DNA of 64,000 nt from Flavobacteriales bacterium (GCA_024103275.1 JAGFIV010000036.1:6279-70278); one strand, 5' to 3'. Positions 10,035-19,887 are shown, counted from the first letter of the stretch. Numbers and translations are program-made. The notes: a model not told the origin generated them from the letters alone.

Positions 10035-12695
10035 ATGCGGATATTGGACCTGAAGGCCATGCGTGGCCCCAACTATTGGTCGGTGCGGCGCAACCACCTG
10101 ATCGTGATGCGCCTCGACATCGAGGAGCTGGAGGAACGTCCCACGGACAAGATCCCGGGTTTCTTCACGCGGCTGAAGACCCTGTTGCCCTCGCTGTATT
10201 CGCACCGTTGCAGCGAGGACCACGAGGGTGGCTTCTTCGAGCGGGTGGAGCGCGGCACCTGGATGGGCCACGTGATCGAGCACATCGCCTTGGAGATCCA
10301 GACCCTGGCGGGCATGGACACCGGCTTCGGGCGCACACGCACCACCGGTGAGCACGGGATCTACAACGTGGTGTTCAGCTACATCGAGGAGGCCGTGGGC
10401 CTTTACGCGGCACGCGCCTCGGTGCGCATCGCGCAGGCCCTGGTGGACGGCACGCCCTACGACCTGGAGGAGGACATCCAGCGCATGCGGGAGCTGCGCG
10501 AGGACACCCGCCTGGGCCCCAGCACGGGTTCCATCGTGGAGGAAGCCGCCCGCCGGGGCATCCCGTACCTGCGGCTCAACGGGCAGAGCCTGGTGCAGCT
10601 GGGCCACGGGGTGCACCAGAAGCGGATCAGGGCCACCATCACCAGCAACACCAGCAACATCGGGGTGGAGATCGCCTGCGACAAGGAAGAGACCAAGGAC
10701 CTGCTGGAGAGCTACGAGATACCGGTGCCCAAGGGGCGCGTGGTGCGCACCGAGGAAGGGCTTGAGACCGCCTTGAAGGTGGTGGGCTTCCCCTGCGTGA
10801 TCAAGCCCATCGGCGGCAACCACGGGCGGGGCGCCACCATCGGCATCAAGAACTGGGAAGAGGCCAAGGCGGCCCTGGCGGTGGCCAAGGAGGTGAGCCG
10901 CAGCGCGGTGGTGGAGAAGCAGATCTTCGGCCTCGACCACAGGCTGCTGGTGATCAACCACAAGTTCATCGCCGCCGCCAAGCGCACGCCGGCCGCCGTG
11001 GTGGGCGATGGCAAGCACACCATCACCCAATTGGTGGAGGAATTGAACAAGGACCCCCGGCGGGGCTTCGGCCATGAAAAGGTGCTCACCCAGGTGGACA
11101 TCGACCAGCACACCATCGACCTGCTGGCGCGCGGCGGCATGACGCCCGACAGCATTCCGCCCGCGGGCGAGACGGTATACCTGAAGGCCACGGCCAACCT
11201 CAGCACGGGCGGTACCGCCACGGACGTCACCGAACTGGTGCACTCCTACAACATCTTCATGGCCGAGCGCATTTCGCGCATCATCGACCTGGACATCTGC
11301 GGCATCGACGTGATGACCGAGGACATCACCCGCCCGCTGAACGAGTGCGGCGCCGTGCTCGAGGTCAACGCCGCGCCGGGCTTCCGCATGCACCTGGACC
11401 CCACCGAAGGATTGGGCCGCAACGTGGCCGAGCCCGTGGTGGACATGCTGTTCCCGCCCGGCACGCCGAGCCGCATCCCGATCATCGCCATCACCGGCAC
11501 CAACGGCAAGACCACCACCACGCGCCTGGTCGCGCACATCATGCGCAGCCATGGCTACAAGGTGGGCATGACCTGCACGGACGGCGTGTACATCATGAAC
11601 CGCATGCTGATGCAGGGCGATTGCACCGGGCCGGTCAGCGCCCAGTTTGTCCTGAAGGACCCCCTGGTGGACATGGCGGTGCTGGAGACGGCCCGCGGCG
11701 GCATGATCCGCAGCGGCCTGGGCTTCGAGCATTGCGACGTGGGCATCTGCACCAACGTGGCGGCGGACCACCTTGGCCTGAAGGACATCAACACCATGGA
11801 GGAACTGGCCAACGTGAAAAGCATCGTGCCGCGCAGCGTGCGCCCCGACGGCTACGCCATCCTCAACGCCGACGATGAGCTGGTGATGGCCATGCGCAAG
11901 AAGTGCGAAAGCAAGATCGCCCTCTTCAGCCTGGACGAGACCAACCGCCTGATCCGCCAGCATTGCAAGCTGGGCGGGCTGGCGGCGGTGTATGAGAACG
12001 GCTTCATCACCATCAGCAAGGGGGAGTGGAAGCTGCGGATCGAAAAGGCGGTGAACGTGCCGCTCACCTACGGCGGCAAGGCCGTGTTCAACATCCAGAA
12101 CATCCTGCCGGCCGTCCTGGCGGCCTACGTGCAGGGGGTGAAGATCGAGGAGCTGCGCGAGGCGCTGAACACCTTCGTGCCCTCACCGGCGCAAACCCCC
12201 GGCCGCCTGAACATGTTCCAGTTCAAGAATTTCCAGGTGGTGGTGGACTATGCGCACAACCCGCACGGCTTCGAGGCCTTGGGGCGCTTCCTCAGCAAGA
12301 TCCCCGACAGCCCCAAGGTGGGCGTCATCGCCGGGGTGGGCGACCGCCGCGACGAGGATACCATCACCCTGGGGCGGCTGAGCGCAGGCATGTTCGACGA
12401 GATCATCATCCGGCAGGACCGCAACCTCAGGGGCCGCACCGATGACGAGATCATCGCCCTGATGATGCAAGGCATCCGGGAGGTGGACCCCGACAAGAAG
12501 GTCACCGTGATCAAGAAGGAGGAGGAAGCGATCCGCCATGCCATCAGCACCGCCAAGCCAGGCAGCTTCCTCACCCTGTGCAGCGACGTGGTGCCCGACG
12601 CACTCGCCCTGGTGATGAAGCTCAAGGAAGAGGATGAGCAGATCCCCTTCAGCAAGGAGGACATCCCCAACCGGAACAAGGAGCTGGTGGGGTGA
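10035..12695 (+). CDS. cphA: Cyanophycin synthetase
   Basis: 886 aa. The N-terminus MRILDLKAMRGPNYWSVRRNHLIVMRLDIEELEERP is the canonical CphA start. An ATP-grasp central domain is followed by a Mur-ligase-like C-terminal domain (GTNGKTTTTRL P-loop). The stop codon overlaps the ATG of the downstream Rhs-CT ORF. Confidence 0.95.
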   Translation: MRILDLKAMRGPNYWSVRRNHLIVMRLDIEELEERPTDKIPGFFTRLKTLLPSLYSHRCSEDHEGGFFERVERGTWMGHVIEHIALEIQTLAGMDTGFGRTRTTGEHGIYNVVFSYIEEAVGLYAARASVRIAQALVDGTPYDLEEDIQRMRELREDTRLGPSTGSIVEEAARRGIPYLRLNGQSLVQLGHGVHQKRIRATITSNTSNIGVEIACDKEETKDLLESYEIPVPKGRVVRTEEGLETALKVVGFPCVIKPIGGNHGRGATIGIKNWEEAKAALAVAKEVSRSAVVEKQIFGLDHRLLVINHKFIAAAKRTPAAVVGDGKHTITQLVEELNKDPRRGFGHEKVLTQVDIDQHTIDLLARGGMTPDSIPPAGETVYLKATANLSTGGTATDVTELVHSYNIFMAERISRIIDLDICGIDVMTEDITRPLNECGAVLEVNAAPGFRMHLDPTEGLGRNVAEPVVDMLFPPGTPSRIPIIAITGTNGKTTTTRLVAHIMRSHGYKVGMTCTDGVYIMNRMLMQGDCTGPVSAQFVLKDPLVDMAVLETARGGMIRSGLGFEHCDVGICTNVAADHLGLKDINTMEELANVKSIVPRSVRPDGYAILNADDELVMAMRKKCESKIALFSLDETNRLIRQHCKLGGLAAVYENGFITISKGEWKLRIEKAVNVPLTYGGKAVFNIQNILPAVLAAYVQGVKIEELREALNTFVPSPAQTPGRLNMFQFKNFQVVVDYAHNPHGFEALGRFLSKIPDSPKVGVIAGVGDRRDEDTITLGRLSAGMFDEIIIRQDRNLRGRTDDEIIALMMQGIREVDPDKKVTVIKKEEEAIRHAISTAKPGSFLTLCSDVVPDALALVMKLKEEDEQIPFSKEDIPNRNKELVG

Positions 12696-12697
12696 TG
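12646..12697. repeat. Direct repeat copy 1 (last 52 nt of cphA) - putative attL of integrative island
   Basis: ccttcagcaaggaggacatccccaaccggaacaaggagctggtggggtgatg is repeated at 19836-19887 with 2 mismatches. Confidence 0.75.
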
Positions 12698-13627
12698 CGG
12701 GGGGCCGGTGATTTCCGGAATGTGCAGGGGTATGAACCCTTCGGGGCGATGTTGCCCGGACGCAACTACAGCTCCGATGCGTACCGGTTCGGGTTCCAGG
12801 GACAGATCAAGGACGATGAAGTGTATGGGGTTGCGGGGACGAGCTACGACTTCGGTGCAAGGCTTTACGATTCGAGGATGGGCAGGTGGTTGAGCTTGGA
12901 TCCTTTGGTAAGGCAATACCCTAACTGGTCACCATATAACTTCGTTATGAATGGCCCTATTCGGTTAATTGATCCGAATGGAATGAGTGTTGATAACTAT
13001 ACAATTGACCCAGCAGGGAAAATCGTATTGAGCGAAAAGACGAATGATAATTTCGATAAGTTAACTGCAGTTGATGATTTTGGAGATGAAATATCTAATT
13101 CGATTACAATTAATGATCAAACACTTTTACCTCAACTGGCAGCATCACCAAGGAATGCAGAAATACCCGAAGGCTCTGAAAAAATGAATATAGGTTTTAC
13201 TGCTGATAAAGTTGCAGCTACTGATTTATTTAAGTATGCTTCAGACAATACCAATGTTGAGTGGGGGTTAATGGGTTTCCGAACGGATGAAATTGAAAGG
13301 TTTGCTATTGGCACTTCACATGCGGAAAGCCATGTGGCCTCAATGGATCAATTTTTTAATCTTTACGATAAGACCTTTGATATTCATTCCCACCCTGGGC
13401 AACCTGGGGAGATTTCTAAAGACATCCACTTTGGCTTTGGAGGATGGGGTGATGTGCCGCGTGCTCAACAACAGGCGATAGCCTTCCATAAGAAAGGCCT
13501 ACCGCTGCCTGCTTTGGGTGTTTATCATGTGCCTTCTCAAGGGCTTTACTCATACACCCATGAGAAAAGGAATGTATTTGAAGGTTATATCCGGACGGGA
13601 AAGGATCTCAGAAACAGGCTGCCATGA
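12695..13627 (+). CDS. Orphan Rhs C-terminal toxin cassette (Rhs core-end fragment + variable CT domain)
   Basis: N-terminal ~60 aa, GYEPFGAMLPGRNYSSDAYRFGFQGQIKDDEVYG...YDFGARLYDSRMGRWLSLDP...LIDPNGM, is the terminal segment of the RHS-repeat-associated core ending in the DPxG(L/M) demarcation. The downstream ~250 aa are unique and lower in GC, and contain an HSHPGQPGEISKD motif that is weakly JAMM-like. The ATG overlaps the cphA stop (TGATG). There is no full-length Rhs upstream. Confidence 0.8.
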   Translation: MRGAGDFRNVQGYEPFGAMLPGRNYSSDAYRFGFQGQIKDDEVYGVAGTSYDFGARLYDSRMGRWLSLDPLVRQYPNWSPYNFVMNGPIRLIDPNGMSVDNYTIDPAGKIVLSEKTNDNFDKLTAVDDFGDEISNSITINDQTLLPQLAASPRNAEIPEGSEKMNIGFTADKVAATDLFKYASDNTNVEWGLMGFRTDEIERFAIGTSHAESHVASMDQFFNLYDKTFDIHSHPGQPGEISKDIHFGFGGWGDVPRAQQQAIAFHKKGLPLPALGVYHVPSQGLYSYTHEKRNVFEGYIRTGKDLRNRLP

Positions 13628-19401: not shown

Positions 19402-19835
19402 TCCCCCCAACGCGCCCCAACCCGCGCCCGGGTGTGCGAGGGTCCAGATGATCCCGGCGCTCGCTTGCAGCGAGTGCCCGTAGAGCCATCCGCCTCTGCC
19501 ACCGGGCAGGTCCGGCGGTCCCCCAACCCGCGCTCGGCTGCGCGAGGCCAGAGAAGAACCCGGCGCTCGGCTTTGCCGGTAATTCCAGTAATCTGCCGAG
19601 TGCCCGGCGCATATTCTCCGCCTCCGGCGGCCTGTGGTACATTAGGCAACATGAGCGACCTTCCTTAAGCTCACCTGTCAGGACCGGTTGCTTACCTTGC
19701 CGGAGCACTATGGTTACAGCAGCGCCCACTCCAAAAGCCCGGTCAAGCTGTTCGGCCAATGATGAACCAGCGAGAAACGGCCAAAGGCCGGAGGGAACGG
19801 GCACTCGGCACAGCCGAGCGCCGGGGTGGGGGTGT
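19341..19835. repeat. Composite block of GC-rich mosaic repeat elements (tandem module 1 copies, module 2, ~160-bp module 4)
   Basis: Two tandem cccgcgc(t/c)cgggtgtgcg(c/a)gggtccagatgatcc units. Then gcttgcagcgagtgcccgtagagccatccgcctctgccaccgggcaggtccggcggtc. Then a ~160-bp segment (ggaccggttgcttaccttgccggagcactatggttacagcagcgcccactcc...ggcactcggcacagccgagcgccggggtggg) that recurs at 20810-20966. Confidence 0.7.
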
Positions 19836-19887
19836 CCTTCACCAAGGAGGATATCCCCAACCGGAACAAGGAGCTGGTGGGGTGATG
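19836..19887. repeat. Direct repeat copy 2 (duplicate of cphA 3' end) - putative attR of integrative island
   Basis: ccttcaccaaggaggatatccccaaccggaacaaggagctggtggggtgatg matches 12646-12697 at 50/52 positions. It is followed by a 28-codon remnant ORF (MWMTGYMQSIF...). Confidence 0.75.

Follow-up and report, generated by a model that had tools for sequence, protein, structure and literature searches.

Genomic islands and integrative mobilizable elements that insert into the 3′ end of a protein-coding gene restore the gene which they enter, and their decayed derivatives that are still flanked by att sites, such as those of the ICESt elements of Streptococcus thermophilus, are known as cis-mobilizable elements (CIMEs). 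Integrated plasmid-like elements that combine an MCM-family helicase with an integrase are known mainly from archaea, and from some prophages. Here we describe a block of 7,190 bp inserted at the stop codon of cphA, the gene for cyanophycin synthetase, in a 64-kb stretch of DNA (hereafter the window) taken from a metagenome-assembled genome (MAG) of a Flavobacteriales bacterium. The last 17 codons of cphA have been regenerated at the insertion point, the same site is found empty in an otherwise identical strain, and the insertion is real and recent.

Orphan Rhs arrays are attributed to C-terminal displacement (Jackson 2009; Koskiniemi 2014, PMC3967940), as summarised in Steele 2017 (PMC5727410), and integrase-like genes have been noted near orphan Rhs cassettes of bee-gut bacteria, without a mechanism (Steele 2017, PMC5727410). 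The rAID-1 systems of gut Bacteroidales have one recombinase at the 5′ end, behind which short immunity genes form a long array (Ross et al. 2019, 10.1101/471110; PMC12247911). They are delimited by an XerD-like recombinase at the 5′ end that shares 44% identity or more with BF9343_RS08045, by at least two co-oriented genes of at most 41% GC directly after this recombinase, and by repetitive intergenic motifs, and their authors state close homologues of the recombinase to be confined to Bacteroidales (10.1101/471110).

The block lies between two copies of a 52-nucleotide (nt) direct repeat, in the following setting:

10035 to 12695, plus strand: cphA (cyanophycin synthetase), the target gene; an intact open reading frame (ORF) of 886 aa, with its last 17 codons inside repeat copy 1.
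12646 to 12697, plus strand: direct repeat copy 1, attL-like, CCTTCAGCAAGGAGGACATCCCCAACCGGAACAAGGAGCTGGTGGGGTGATG; host alleles in the left 17 nt (G at 12652, C at 12662).
19836 to 19887, plus strand: direct repeat copy 2, attR-like, CCTTCACCAAGGAGGATATCCCCAACCGGAACAAGGAGCTGGTGGGGTGATG; foreign alleles in the left 17 nt (C at 19842, T at 19852).
19888 to 20580: native right flank, a 28-nt spacer and the PIN and DUF6364 genes; contiguous with cphA in the empty-site contig.
19916 to 20326, minus strand: PIN toxin gene (Pfam PIN_3, 2e-22).
20326 to 20580, minus strand: DUF6364 antitoxin gene (Pfam DUF6364, 5.5e-20).

The empty site was found by a look-up of the exact PIN protein encoded to the right of copy 2, which led to a 1,868-nt k-mer contig assembled from short reads (L137, run SRR27217539). 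This contig is window 11492-12697 joined directly to 19888-20549, identical at 1868 of 1868 nt, with the DUF6364 and PIN genes running directly into cphA. Its single att sequence has the left alleles of copy 1 and the right flank of copy 2, which is the expected attB, because a crossover inside the 35-nt segment that the two copies share predicts exactly that. In another species (L071), with 83.5% DNA identity in cphA, an intact copy of the gene is followed by a homologue of 19888-19933 at 90%. The occupied state is likewise on record elsewhere: the complete arrangement from cphA to PIN is present in ENA assembly ERZ22666005 (five samples) and in the NCBI MAG GCA_035063745.1, the left occupied junction on an independent contig (L142, ERZ773355) and the right one on another (L138, SRR21707688).

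A preliminary description of the window had proposed integration into the 3′ end of cphA, with the gene end regenerated between att-like repeats, and had suggested that an empty site be sought in related genomes. This proposal was borne out, as the end of cphA is joined to 19888 onward in L137 and at the corresponding junction of the second species, and cphA itself is intact. The 52-nt duplication was confirmed by direct reading of both stretches: of the 52 positions only 12652/19842 (G/C) and 12662/19852 (C/T) differ, which leaves 50 matches, and the final 35 nt are exact. From the ORF map, copy 1 indeed comprises the last 17 cphA codons, the TGA and the ATG at 12695 which overlaps this stop and opens the next ORF, and the 28-codon ORF that had been placed after copy 2 (MWMTGYMQS...) is present, its first ~46 nt being conserved 3′ of cphA in L071. 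A search for the 35-mer with up to three mismatches found these two places and no other in the window, and nothing in 100 dinucleotide-preserving shuffles, and a repeat search of the window recovered the pair at 95% over 55 nt. The identity of the target gene is supported by Pfam Cyanophycin_syn and Mur_ligase matches on the identical cphA gene of two other contigs (L081, L092), and its length and C-terminus (…DIPNRNKELVG) are the same as in 80 related species, our comparison set of 80 cphA loci (L001-L080) from related Flavobacteriales MAGs with a cphA protein identity of 82-93%.

The two copies also differ in their origin. The left variants of copy 2 (ACC, GAT) match the cphA of other species, not that of the host, and just upstream of copy 2 lies GGTG, as in other species' cphA, the host's own sequence being GATC. 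Two such changes within 17 nt are not drift, because no other difference separates the strains in 1.87 kb, and it follows from the match to other species' cphA that the block carried its own cphA-like arm; such an arm is what an attP, or an earlier residence beside cphA in another lineage, would be expected to give. Compared with the 80 related genes, cphA-like sequence around copy 2 begins at 19831/19832 at the earliest, and the DNA directly 5′ of the copy is a repetitive extragenic palindrome (REP)-like hairpin with a short gene fragment. The preliminary description had named a second cphA pseudogene at this place as a ground for refutation; copy 2 as the tail of such a pseudogene is ruled out, with no cphA similarity upstream of 19831. 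Two other kinds of target were rejected: no tRNA or known RNA family lies in 12000-24000, the sole tRNA being at 55241, and a REP/IS200-type hairpin target at the att region is ruled out by its folding (z = -0.4 and -0.2).

From its left junction to the right-hand repeat, the block holds the following features:

12695 to 13627, plus strand: toxin tip 1 (cassette 1 is 12695-14121); RHS core and JAB-like toxin domain, ~42% GC.
13624 to 14121, plus strand: putative immunity gene 1; 165 aa, overlaps the stop codon of toxin tip 1, N-terminus lipoprotein-like.
14051 to 14135, plus strand: cassette-end motif; a REP-like hairpin (14051-14074) and a 48-nt motif (14088-14135).
14180 to 14545, minus strand: XRE-family helix-turn-helix (HTH) regulator; 121 aa, Pfam HTH_3 8.5e-15, leftmost gene of the decayed module.
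14578 to 14671 and 14888 to 14981, plus strand: two REP-like copies that bracket a truncated second XRE gene.
14694 to 14891, minus strand: truncated second XRE gene; C-terminal half of the HTH only, read from the sequence.
14997 to 15986, plus strand: recombinase 2-type tyrosine-recombinase-like gene; intact ORF, Pfam Phage_integrase at only 9e-11.
16046 to 16615, plus strand: ORF6N-domain gene (Pfam ORF6N, 7e-34), ~60% GC, inserted between recombinase 2 and the 233-aa remnant.
16710 to 17173, plus strand: frameshifted remnant of a 233-aa gene; two tblastn pieces in different frames, at 42% and 77%.
17711 to 18769, plus strand: toxin tip 2 (cassette 2 is 17711-19401); leader, RHS-type core and unassigned C-terminal domain, ~39% GC in the tip.
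17801 to 17921, plus strand: inner direct repeat; 121 nt of RHS-core coding sequence, 90% identical to 12728-12848.
18766 to 19401, plus strand: putative immunity gene 2; 211 aa, N-terminal membrane/lipoprotein signal, 34-39% GC.
19366 to 19831, plus strand: REP-like cluster at the right end of the block, with an inverted REP pair (19453-19481/19797-19825).

The composition of this DNA is a mosaic, in which cphA has 65% GC, cassette 1 42%, the regulatory and recombinase stretch 65%, cassette 2 39% and the REP cluster 67%; the comparison of GC inside and outside the element that had been proposed therefore sets cassettes of 39-42% against flanks of 62-65%. The two toxin/immunity modules of the preliminary description are present, each as a toxin-tip ORF with a small ORF, and the tips are of the orphan RHS-core type. 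Tip 1, whose ATG overlaps the cphA TGA, matches the NCBIfam model TIGR03696 at 54.1 bits (cut-off 32.5 bits) and Pfam Toxin-JAB1 at 9e-12, and its 147 database relatives are almost without exception RHS-core proteins of small size (170-530 aa) that carry various toxin domains. With TIGR03696, tip 2 reaches 29.4 bits, just under the cut-off, its core aligns to that of tip 1 at 73%, and no Pfam toxin domain was recognised in it. From the order and position of toxin and immunity genes alone we infer an immunity role for both small ORFs, neither of which has a family match in profile searches. The copies of the inner repeat bracket a unit of 5,073 bp, made up of cassette 1 and the decayed module, and the same core-to-core layout is present in five other contigs (L089, L094, L099, L121, L132). 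The 64-kb window holds no full-length rhs gene with YD repeats; the core motif occurs in it only twice, and what lies upstream of cassette 1 is cphA.

Tip 2 opens with a leader of ~30 aa (window 17711-17800; MPQGQGHIAN…GSADFFGLG). A leader of this kind (M-P/N/Q-QGQGH…GSADFFGLG) stands directly before GYEPFG in the RHS-core gene that follows the recombinase module, and it is conserved at L094 12020-12131, at L089 11720-11830 and, within the range L098-L108, in L098, L099, L100, L105, L106 and L108. Ordinary orphan arrays (L143) have YD-shell coding sequence ahead of their cores, from which this leader is distinct. Since the leader is conserved and unlike YD-shell sequence, the short core-plus-toxin genes may be complete genes and not fragments.

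The middle of the block is occupied by what is left of a larger module. Its surroundings elsewhere were gathered by exact-protein look-ups and one metagenome scan, and its catalytic residues were judged by alignment to XerD 1a0p and by a family alignment against recombinase 1. The recombinase 2 gene almost always stands in a module that runs from a divergent XRE gene, in the same position and orientation as 14180-14545, through a 73-aa ORF, a ~530-590-aa helicase-like protein and a 315-335-aa recombinase 1 to recombinase 2, which is usually followed by a 178-233-aa gene. This order is kept, or the recombinases are swapped, in contigs whose recombinases are only 31-35% identical. In ~30 other contigs the modules always have RHS-core genes on either side, and cphA is never their neighbour; the core-to-core unit measures 6.3-8.2 kb. 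The module is present at L089 6564-11405, L094 6548-11570 and L099 2661-7649, and in ~30 metagenome contigs (L097-L133). That the flanking RHS cores serve as regular att repeats is ruled out, as their identity ranges from ~70% to 100%. The helicase-like protein (PF27228), which some sources label a primase, has more than 5,000 clusters of relatives; its predicted model (mean pLDDT 72) matches MCM subunits in Foldseek (E-values 1e-7 to 7e-4) and has a winged-helix tail. An origin from a phage or satellite was rejected, as neither the helicase-like protein nor the att sequence nor the cassette-end motif has a match in IMG/VR.

Of these genes, recombinase 1, the helicase and the 73-aa ORF are missing from all 64 kb of the window, and REP-like repeats with half an XRE gene stand in their place. 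Recombinase 1 has the full set of catalytic residues in the alignment. The protein of 14997-15986, which is a recombinase 2, has GLT for GLR (Arg-I), N for the hairpin Lys and QxxR for HxxR (His-II), and retains Arg-II, His-III and Tyr; its family has T, G or N at Arg-I, N at the Lys and Q at His-II down to 46% identity. It weakly matches XerD/XerC models, an identical protein is encoded in 12 contigs, and close homologues (77-87% identity, 306 aa) are common. Homologues of the ORF6N gene (71-81%) lie directly 3′ of cphA in four of the related species (L017, L026, L044, L079), and the 16710-17173 remnant falls within a stretch of 70% GC that has no credible ORF. The genes named in the preliminary description are thus all in place, namely the recombinase (14997-15986), ORF6N (16046-16615), the XRE regulator (14180-14545) and the repeat elements. 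Its term integrative island stands as regards an insertion with att-like repeats; the picture that it implies, of a self-contained island with its own integrase, is not supported, as the gene lies mid-block and lacks residues, and the module has decayed. The module in the window is therefore a wreck, and the retained recombinase-like gene is unlikely to work alone. Since only the XRE gene, the degenerate recombinase and the 233-aa pseudogene survive of the module, the block itself probably no longer moves by itself.

Duplications of a gene end are not confined to this window. In a related species (L011) the end of cphA is followed by two extra copies, so that the three (2938-2991, 3667-3720, 4156-4209) are at 100%, 87% and 70% and delimit separate cassettes of 729 and 489 nt; identity falls with distance from cphA, as in tandem accretion. 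Their right boundary is the same as in the window, at GGGGTGAT, and the left boundary of the better-preserved copy lies within 3 nt of the window's (CCTTCA). The first of these cassettes carries a 134-aa ORF and the next an RDD-family ORF that has the repeat as its own C-terminus (…PNRNKELVG); behind the third copy, a 142-aa ORF opens with the overlapping ATG. Within 10 kb of the L011 copies there is no recombinase. In L017 an ORF6N gene follows cphA and is itself followed by a 23-nt partial copy of the cphA end. Among the 80 species, extra cphA-end copies are found only in L011, in L017 and, weakly, in L042; with these few copies and with ordinary genes in the gap downstream of cphA, the cphA end as a widely used hotspot is ruled out. 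An apparent second cphA end in L019 was set aside as a different phenomenon, which may be an assembly artefact or a genuine duplication of recent date: it is an exact tandem duplication of 829 bp (10601-10960/11430-11790) which covers the last ~300 nt of cphA and downstream DNA. A literature search combining cyanophycin synthetase with integrase, attB or genomic island named no cphA target.

A similar pattern was seen at the gene convergent with cphA, which encodes a 646-aa protein (p646; 21969-23909, minus strand, in the window). The last 48 nt of its homologue are duplicated at 98% in L071 (13015-13062/13750-13797) and at 88% in L055 (12615-12662/13342-13389), and the copies bracket a ~730-bp pair of small ORFs with weak antitoxin-family and ParE matches and no integrase. 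At 21969 the window has the uninterrupted, empty state of this gene end. In L094, GGGGTGATG with a G-rich stretch precedes the first toxin cassette (4076-4110, compared with 12689-12730 in the window) at a site unrelated to cphA, after a TPR gene and a terminator hairpin, and is directly preceded by CCTTC, the left edge of the window's 52-nt repeat; it could represent an att that has collapsed, or else the mobile unit's left end. In about 22 of the 80 species the cphA TGA is followed by TG (TGATG), with an ORF starting on the stop, and the downstream ORFs differ. By our estimate this is far more than base composition would give, which suggests either that translational coupling is common or that the species share one junction point.

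The best explanation for these observations, to which we give a probability of roughly 0.6, is a reciprocal-crossover integration of RHS-toxin cargo that is now probably non-autonomous. A single reciprocal crossover would have taken place between the 3′ end of cphA and a cphA-like sequence of ~52-56 nt on a circular form of the block, within the 35-nt identical segment (12663-12697), and would have brought in the 7,190 bp of 12698-19887 or, equivalently, 12646-19835. In such an event cphA would keep its own sequence up to the crossover and be completed by element-borne DNA, while the displaced native end, joined to the element's left arm with its C and T variants, would become 19836-19887, in front of the PIN/DUF6364 flank. 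The cargo would be a fragment of an RHS-type polymorphic-toxin locus, with two tip/immunity cassettes, a decayed element of ~8 kb and REP-like repeats. The element's own recombinase pair, before its decay, would be the most likely crossover enzyme, with RecA, acting on 35-52 nt of homology, as the main alternative. The most plausible present role of the block would be a defensive one, as a store of two orphan immunity genes and two spare toxin tips against competitors' RHS toxins, and cassette 1 would be read out from cphA through the overlapping TGATG stop and start.

Several other explanations were weighed against this one. That metagenome mis-assembly joined unrelated contigs at a short shared sequence is very improbable: the source is a MAG, and the region is rich in repeats at which many short-read contigs break, but the full cphA-to-PIN arrangement recurs in the independent ENA assembly and NCBI MAG, both junctions recur on further independent contigs (L142, L138), and the repeat copies are distinct loci because they differ at two positions. 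The opposite error, in which L137 is a chimera across the 35-nt exact repeat, is possible in principle for a short-read k-mer contig and would count against an empty allele. We judge it unlikely because L137 is unbroken at the repeat while contigs from samples with both copies break there; L093 ends at 12692, at the repeat, presumably where a 31-mer graph would branch, and an unbroken L137 fits a sample dominated by the empty allele. An active, autonomous island, whose recombinase at 14997-15986 recognises the cphA att and integrates and excises the 7.2 kb with the XRE protein as regulator, would account for direct repeats that regenerate the gene end, for the related cphA-end repeats of L011, and for a presence/absence polymorphism between strains otherwise identical over 1.87 kb, a hint that movement was very recent; the recombinase ORF is also intact, 100% conserved in its 12 contigs from many samples, and adjoined by the XRE gene. 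We nevertheless find this quite improbable, as the recombinase and its whole family are without Arg-I, the beta-hairpin Lys and His-II, the family's partners (the complete recombinase and the MCM-like helicase) are missing from the window, family members sit between RHS-core genes and never at cphA, the gene is 2.3 kb and 3.9 kb from the block ends, and the genes around it are truncated or frameshifted.

It is also conceivable, though in our view unlikely, that no dedicated system was involved, and that the block came from a related lineage by homologous import, with long homology in cphA on the left and short homology on the right, at the displaced cphA end and the PIN flank, or by RecA-mediated Campbell integration of a chance circle, the empty allele being either ancestral or the product of RecA-mediated deletion between the 35-52-nt repeats. 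The following points include those that weigh against the best explanation, and several of them favour such chance recombination. The left end of the block (12698) lies inside a toxin-gene leader, has no recognisable terminus and is more suggestive of a chance breakpoint than of an end that evolved, and a foreign arm in copy 2 that resembles other species' cphA would be expected if the donor block had adjoined cphA. No competent integrase is aboard: the only in-block recombinase-like gene appears impaired and its homologues never adjoin cphA. Related arrays are bracketed by other repeats (the 71-nt motif of L143; a cassette of at least 461 nt in L094/L096), which fits recombination at any homology. 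Each of the 80 species has a gap here that varies, from ~20 nt to more than 8 kb between cphA and the conserved downstream neighbour, filled mostly with ordinary genes (proteins with type IX secretion system (T9SS) tails, dienelactone hydrolases, transporters), and the 25 commonest Pfam families listed for 150 surveyed gap ORFs include no integrase. None of the 80 species has the block, or a relative of its recombinase, near cphA; with gaps of such ordinary content, the use of cphA for attachment is therefore not widespread. Secondary structure in the att region is not significant at the z-scores given above, no contig on record joins 19835 to 12698, and a circular or excised form has not been seen. 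Chance recombination does not, on the other hand, predict that the boundaries in the window and in L011 coincide (GGGGTGAT on the right, within 3 nt of CCTTCA on the left), a regularity that exceeds what accidental breakpoints would give; the pattern at the p646 homologues of L055 and L071 is of similar length (48 nt), and the presence of GGGGTGATG before the first cassette at the unrelated L094 site hints at a defined element end.

A more far-reaching proposal concerns the module. It would be a relic of undescribed but very abundant elements of ~6-8 kb in Bacteroidota, which insert at the RHS core and displace the resident warhead downstream as an orphan, the gene-end duplications at cphA (window, L011, L017) and p646 (L055, L071) being secondary or off-target sites of this machinery; we regard this as speculative and doubtful as it stands. 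Under the RHS-core-targeting proposal, each element may comprise an XRE gene, an MCM-like helicase, a complete and a degenerate recombinase, and a toxin tip with its immunity gene, and the process may be an enzyme-driven version of 'C-terminal displacement'. The cassettes without an integrase at cphA and p646 may then have been left behind or mobilised in trans. We found no published description of a module element that joins a helicase to a complete and a degenerate recombinase.

Foreign-looking DNA in the window extends further than the 52-bp repeats that had been taken as the bounds of the island, as low-GC cassettes and REP-like repeats continue to ~21930. A third low-GC (39%) cassette at 20970-21800, between the PIN/DUF6364 pair and the p646 gene, has a 170-aa ORF (21182-21694) and the same end motif, and since it lies outside the repeats the foreign-looking DNA exceeds the island as first reported. 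The 48-nt motif of cassette 1 (14088-14135) recurs at 21749-21796 (94%) and 3′ of cphA in L012, and 20816-20966 is a 93% duplicate of the right-end REP cluster. Behind each low-GC cassette stand REP-like and 48-nt motifs (14051-14135, 19366-19610, 21701-21796), which are confined to 14053-21927 within the 64 kb; the REP hairpin folds at z = -2.0. The REP pair at the right end of the block encloses a gene fragment of ~25 codons (19685-19759), for which no full-length gene was present in any fetched locus. Two such units, with an inverted REP pair around a ~25-codon fragment (…LPEHY[G/A]YSSAHS.SPVKLFGQ*), were seen, the first (19453-19825) abutting repeat copy 2 and the second (20696-20960) abutting the low-GC cassette at 20970-21700. 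The fragments may be remnants of REP-associated transposases (RAYTs).

In several species, motifs starting with CCCCGCT trail the last ORF of a cassette, always on the cassette strand, and are of two kinds, the 48-nt motif with a GTAA-loop hairpin and GCGGATGTTCGCTGGTTCGGATC. They occur in the window at 14051-14135, 19366-19610, 20655-20748 and 21701-21927, and elsewhere in L012 (11550-11625), L143 (9857-9926, 18827-18897), L011 (3479, 4672, 9564), L089 (5064, 15439), L094 (5504), L014 (12088) and L051 (5519); a 71-nt version brackets a four-cassette orphan array in L143. These motifs may act as terminators, as REP elements or in recombination. Further to the right, a 707-aa plus-strand ORF at 22848-24971 is not one gene, as its first half is antisense to the 646-aa gene (21969-23909, minus strand); only the part from ~23900 on is conserved, and in most related species it is this part that normally lies downstream of cphA.

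The locus offers a clean natural example of occupied and empty alleles in otherwise identical strains, with toxin/immunity cargo behind a housekeeping gene, and adds cphA as a site for such cargo in uncultured Flavobacteriales. If the small ORFs are immunity genes, the presence or absence of the block should alter which neighbours kill the strain. The family of helicase/dual-recombinase elements between RHS-core genes is a more novel lead than the island itself: cassette gain in RHS-core arrays has so far mostly been attributed to homologous recombination, and a module with a helicase, an active and a degenerate recombinase could explain it.

Compared with the described systems, the window's array resembles orphan Rhs arrays in its RHS core, variable toxin domain and small downstream gene, in its host-unlike GC, in successive cassettes that share the core (121 nt, 90% here) and in having an integrase-like gene close by. 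Unlike those arrays it has no upstream full-length rhs gene with YD repeats and hangs off cphA instead, its recombinase-like gene is part of a helicase-bearing element and not a lone integrase, and its host is a Flavobacteriales bacterium of wastewater-type metagenomes. With rAID-1 it shares several features: an XerD-like recombinase accompanies low-GC co-oriented cassettes that are predicted to encode toxin fragments and orphan immunity proteins, each cassette is followed by conserved repeated motifs, and the likely benefit is protection from neighbours' toxins. The layout departs from that of rAID-1, as the recombinase is followed by ORF6N (~60% GC) and a 70% GC pseudogene before one low-GC cassette, the other low-GC cassette lies upstream of it, only two cassettes lie inside the repeats, and the recombinase is degenerate, placed between cassettes and one of a pair that goes with an MCM-like helicase. 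With the MCM/integrase elements, the module's intact relatives share an MCM-like helicase directly upstream of the recombinases and downstream of a divergent XRE gene; they differ in being bacterial (Bacteroidota), in having two recombinases, one of them degenerate, and in their RHS-core flanks, and the window has lost the helicase.

The closest comparison is with gene-end islands and CIMEs. Differences from these are that the block has no competent integrase at either end, as judged by alignment, that its internal recombinase belongs to a module normally found in toxin loci, that its left end is a breakpoint within a gene, and that cphA is a target which the literature search did not name. 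Shared with them are repeats of a few tens of nt taken from the 3′ end of the target, a target gene that remains intact, an empty site in a sister strain, an element-side repeat arm that differs from the host-side arm, and evidence of tandem accretion in a relative (L011). By this comparison the block appears to have worked like a genomic island of the gene-3′-end type, and would now most resemble a non-autonomous derivative flanked by att sites.

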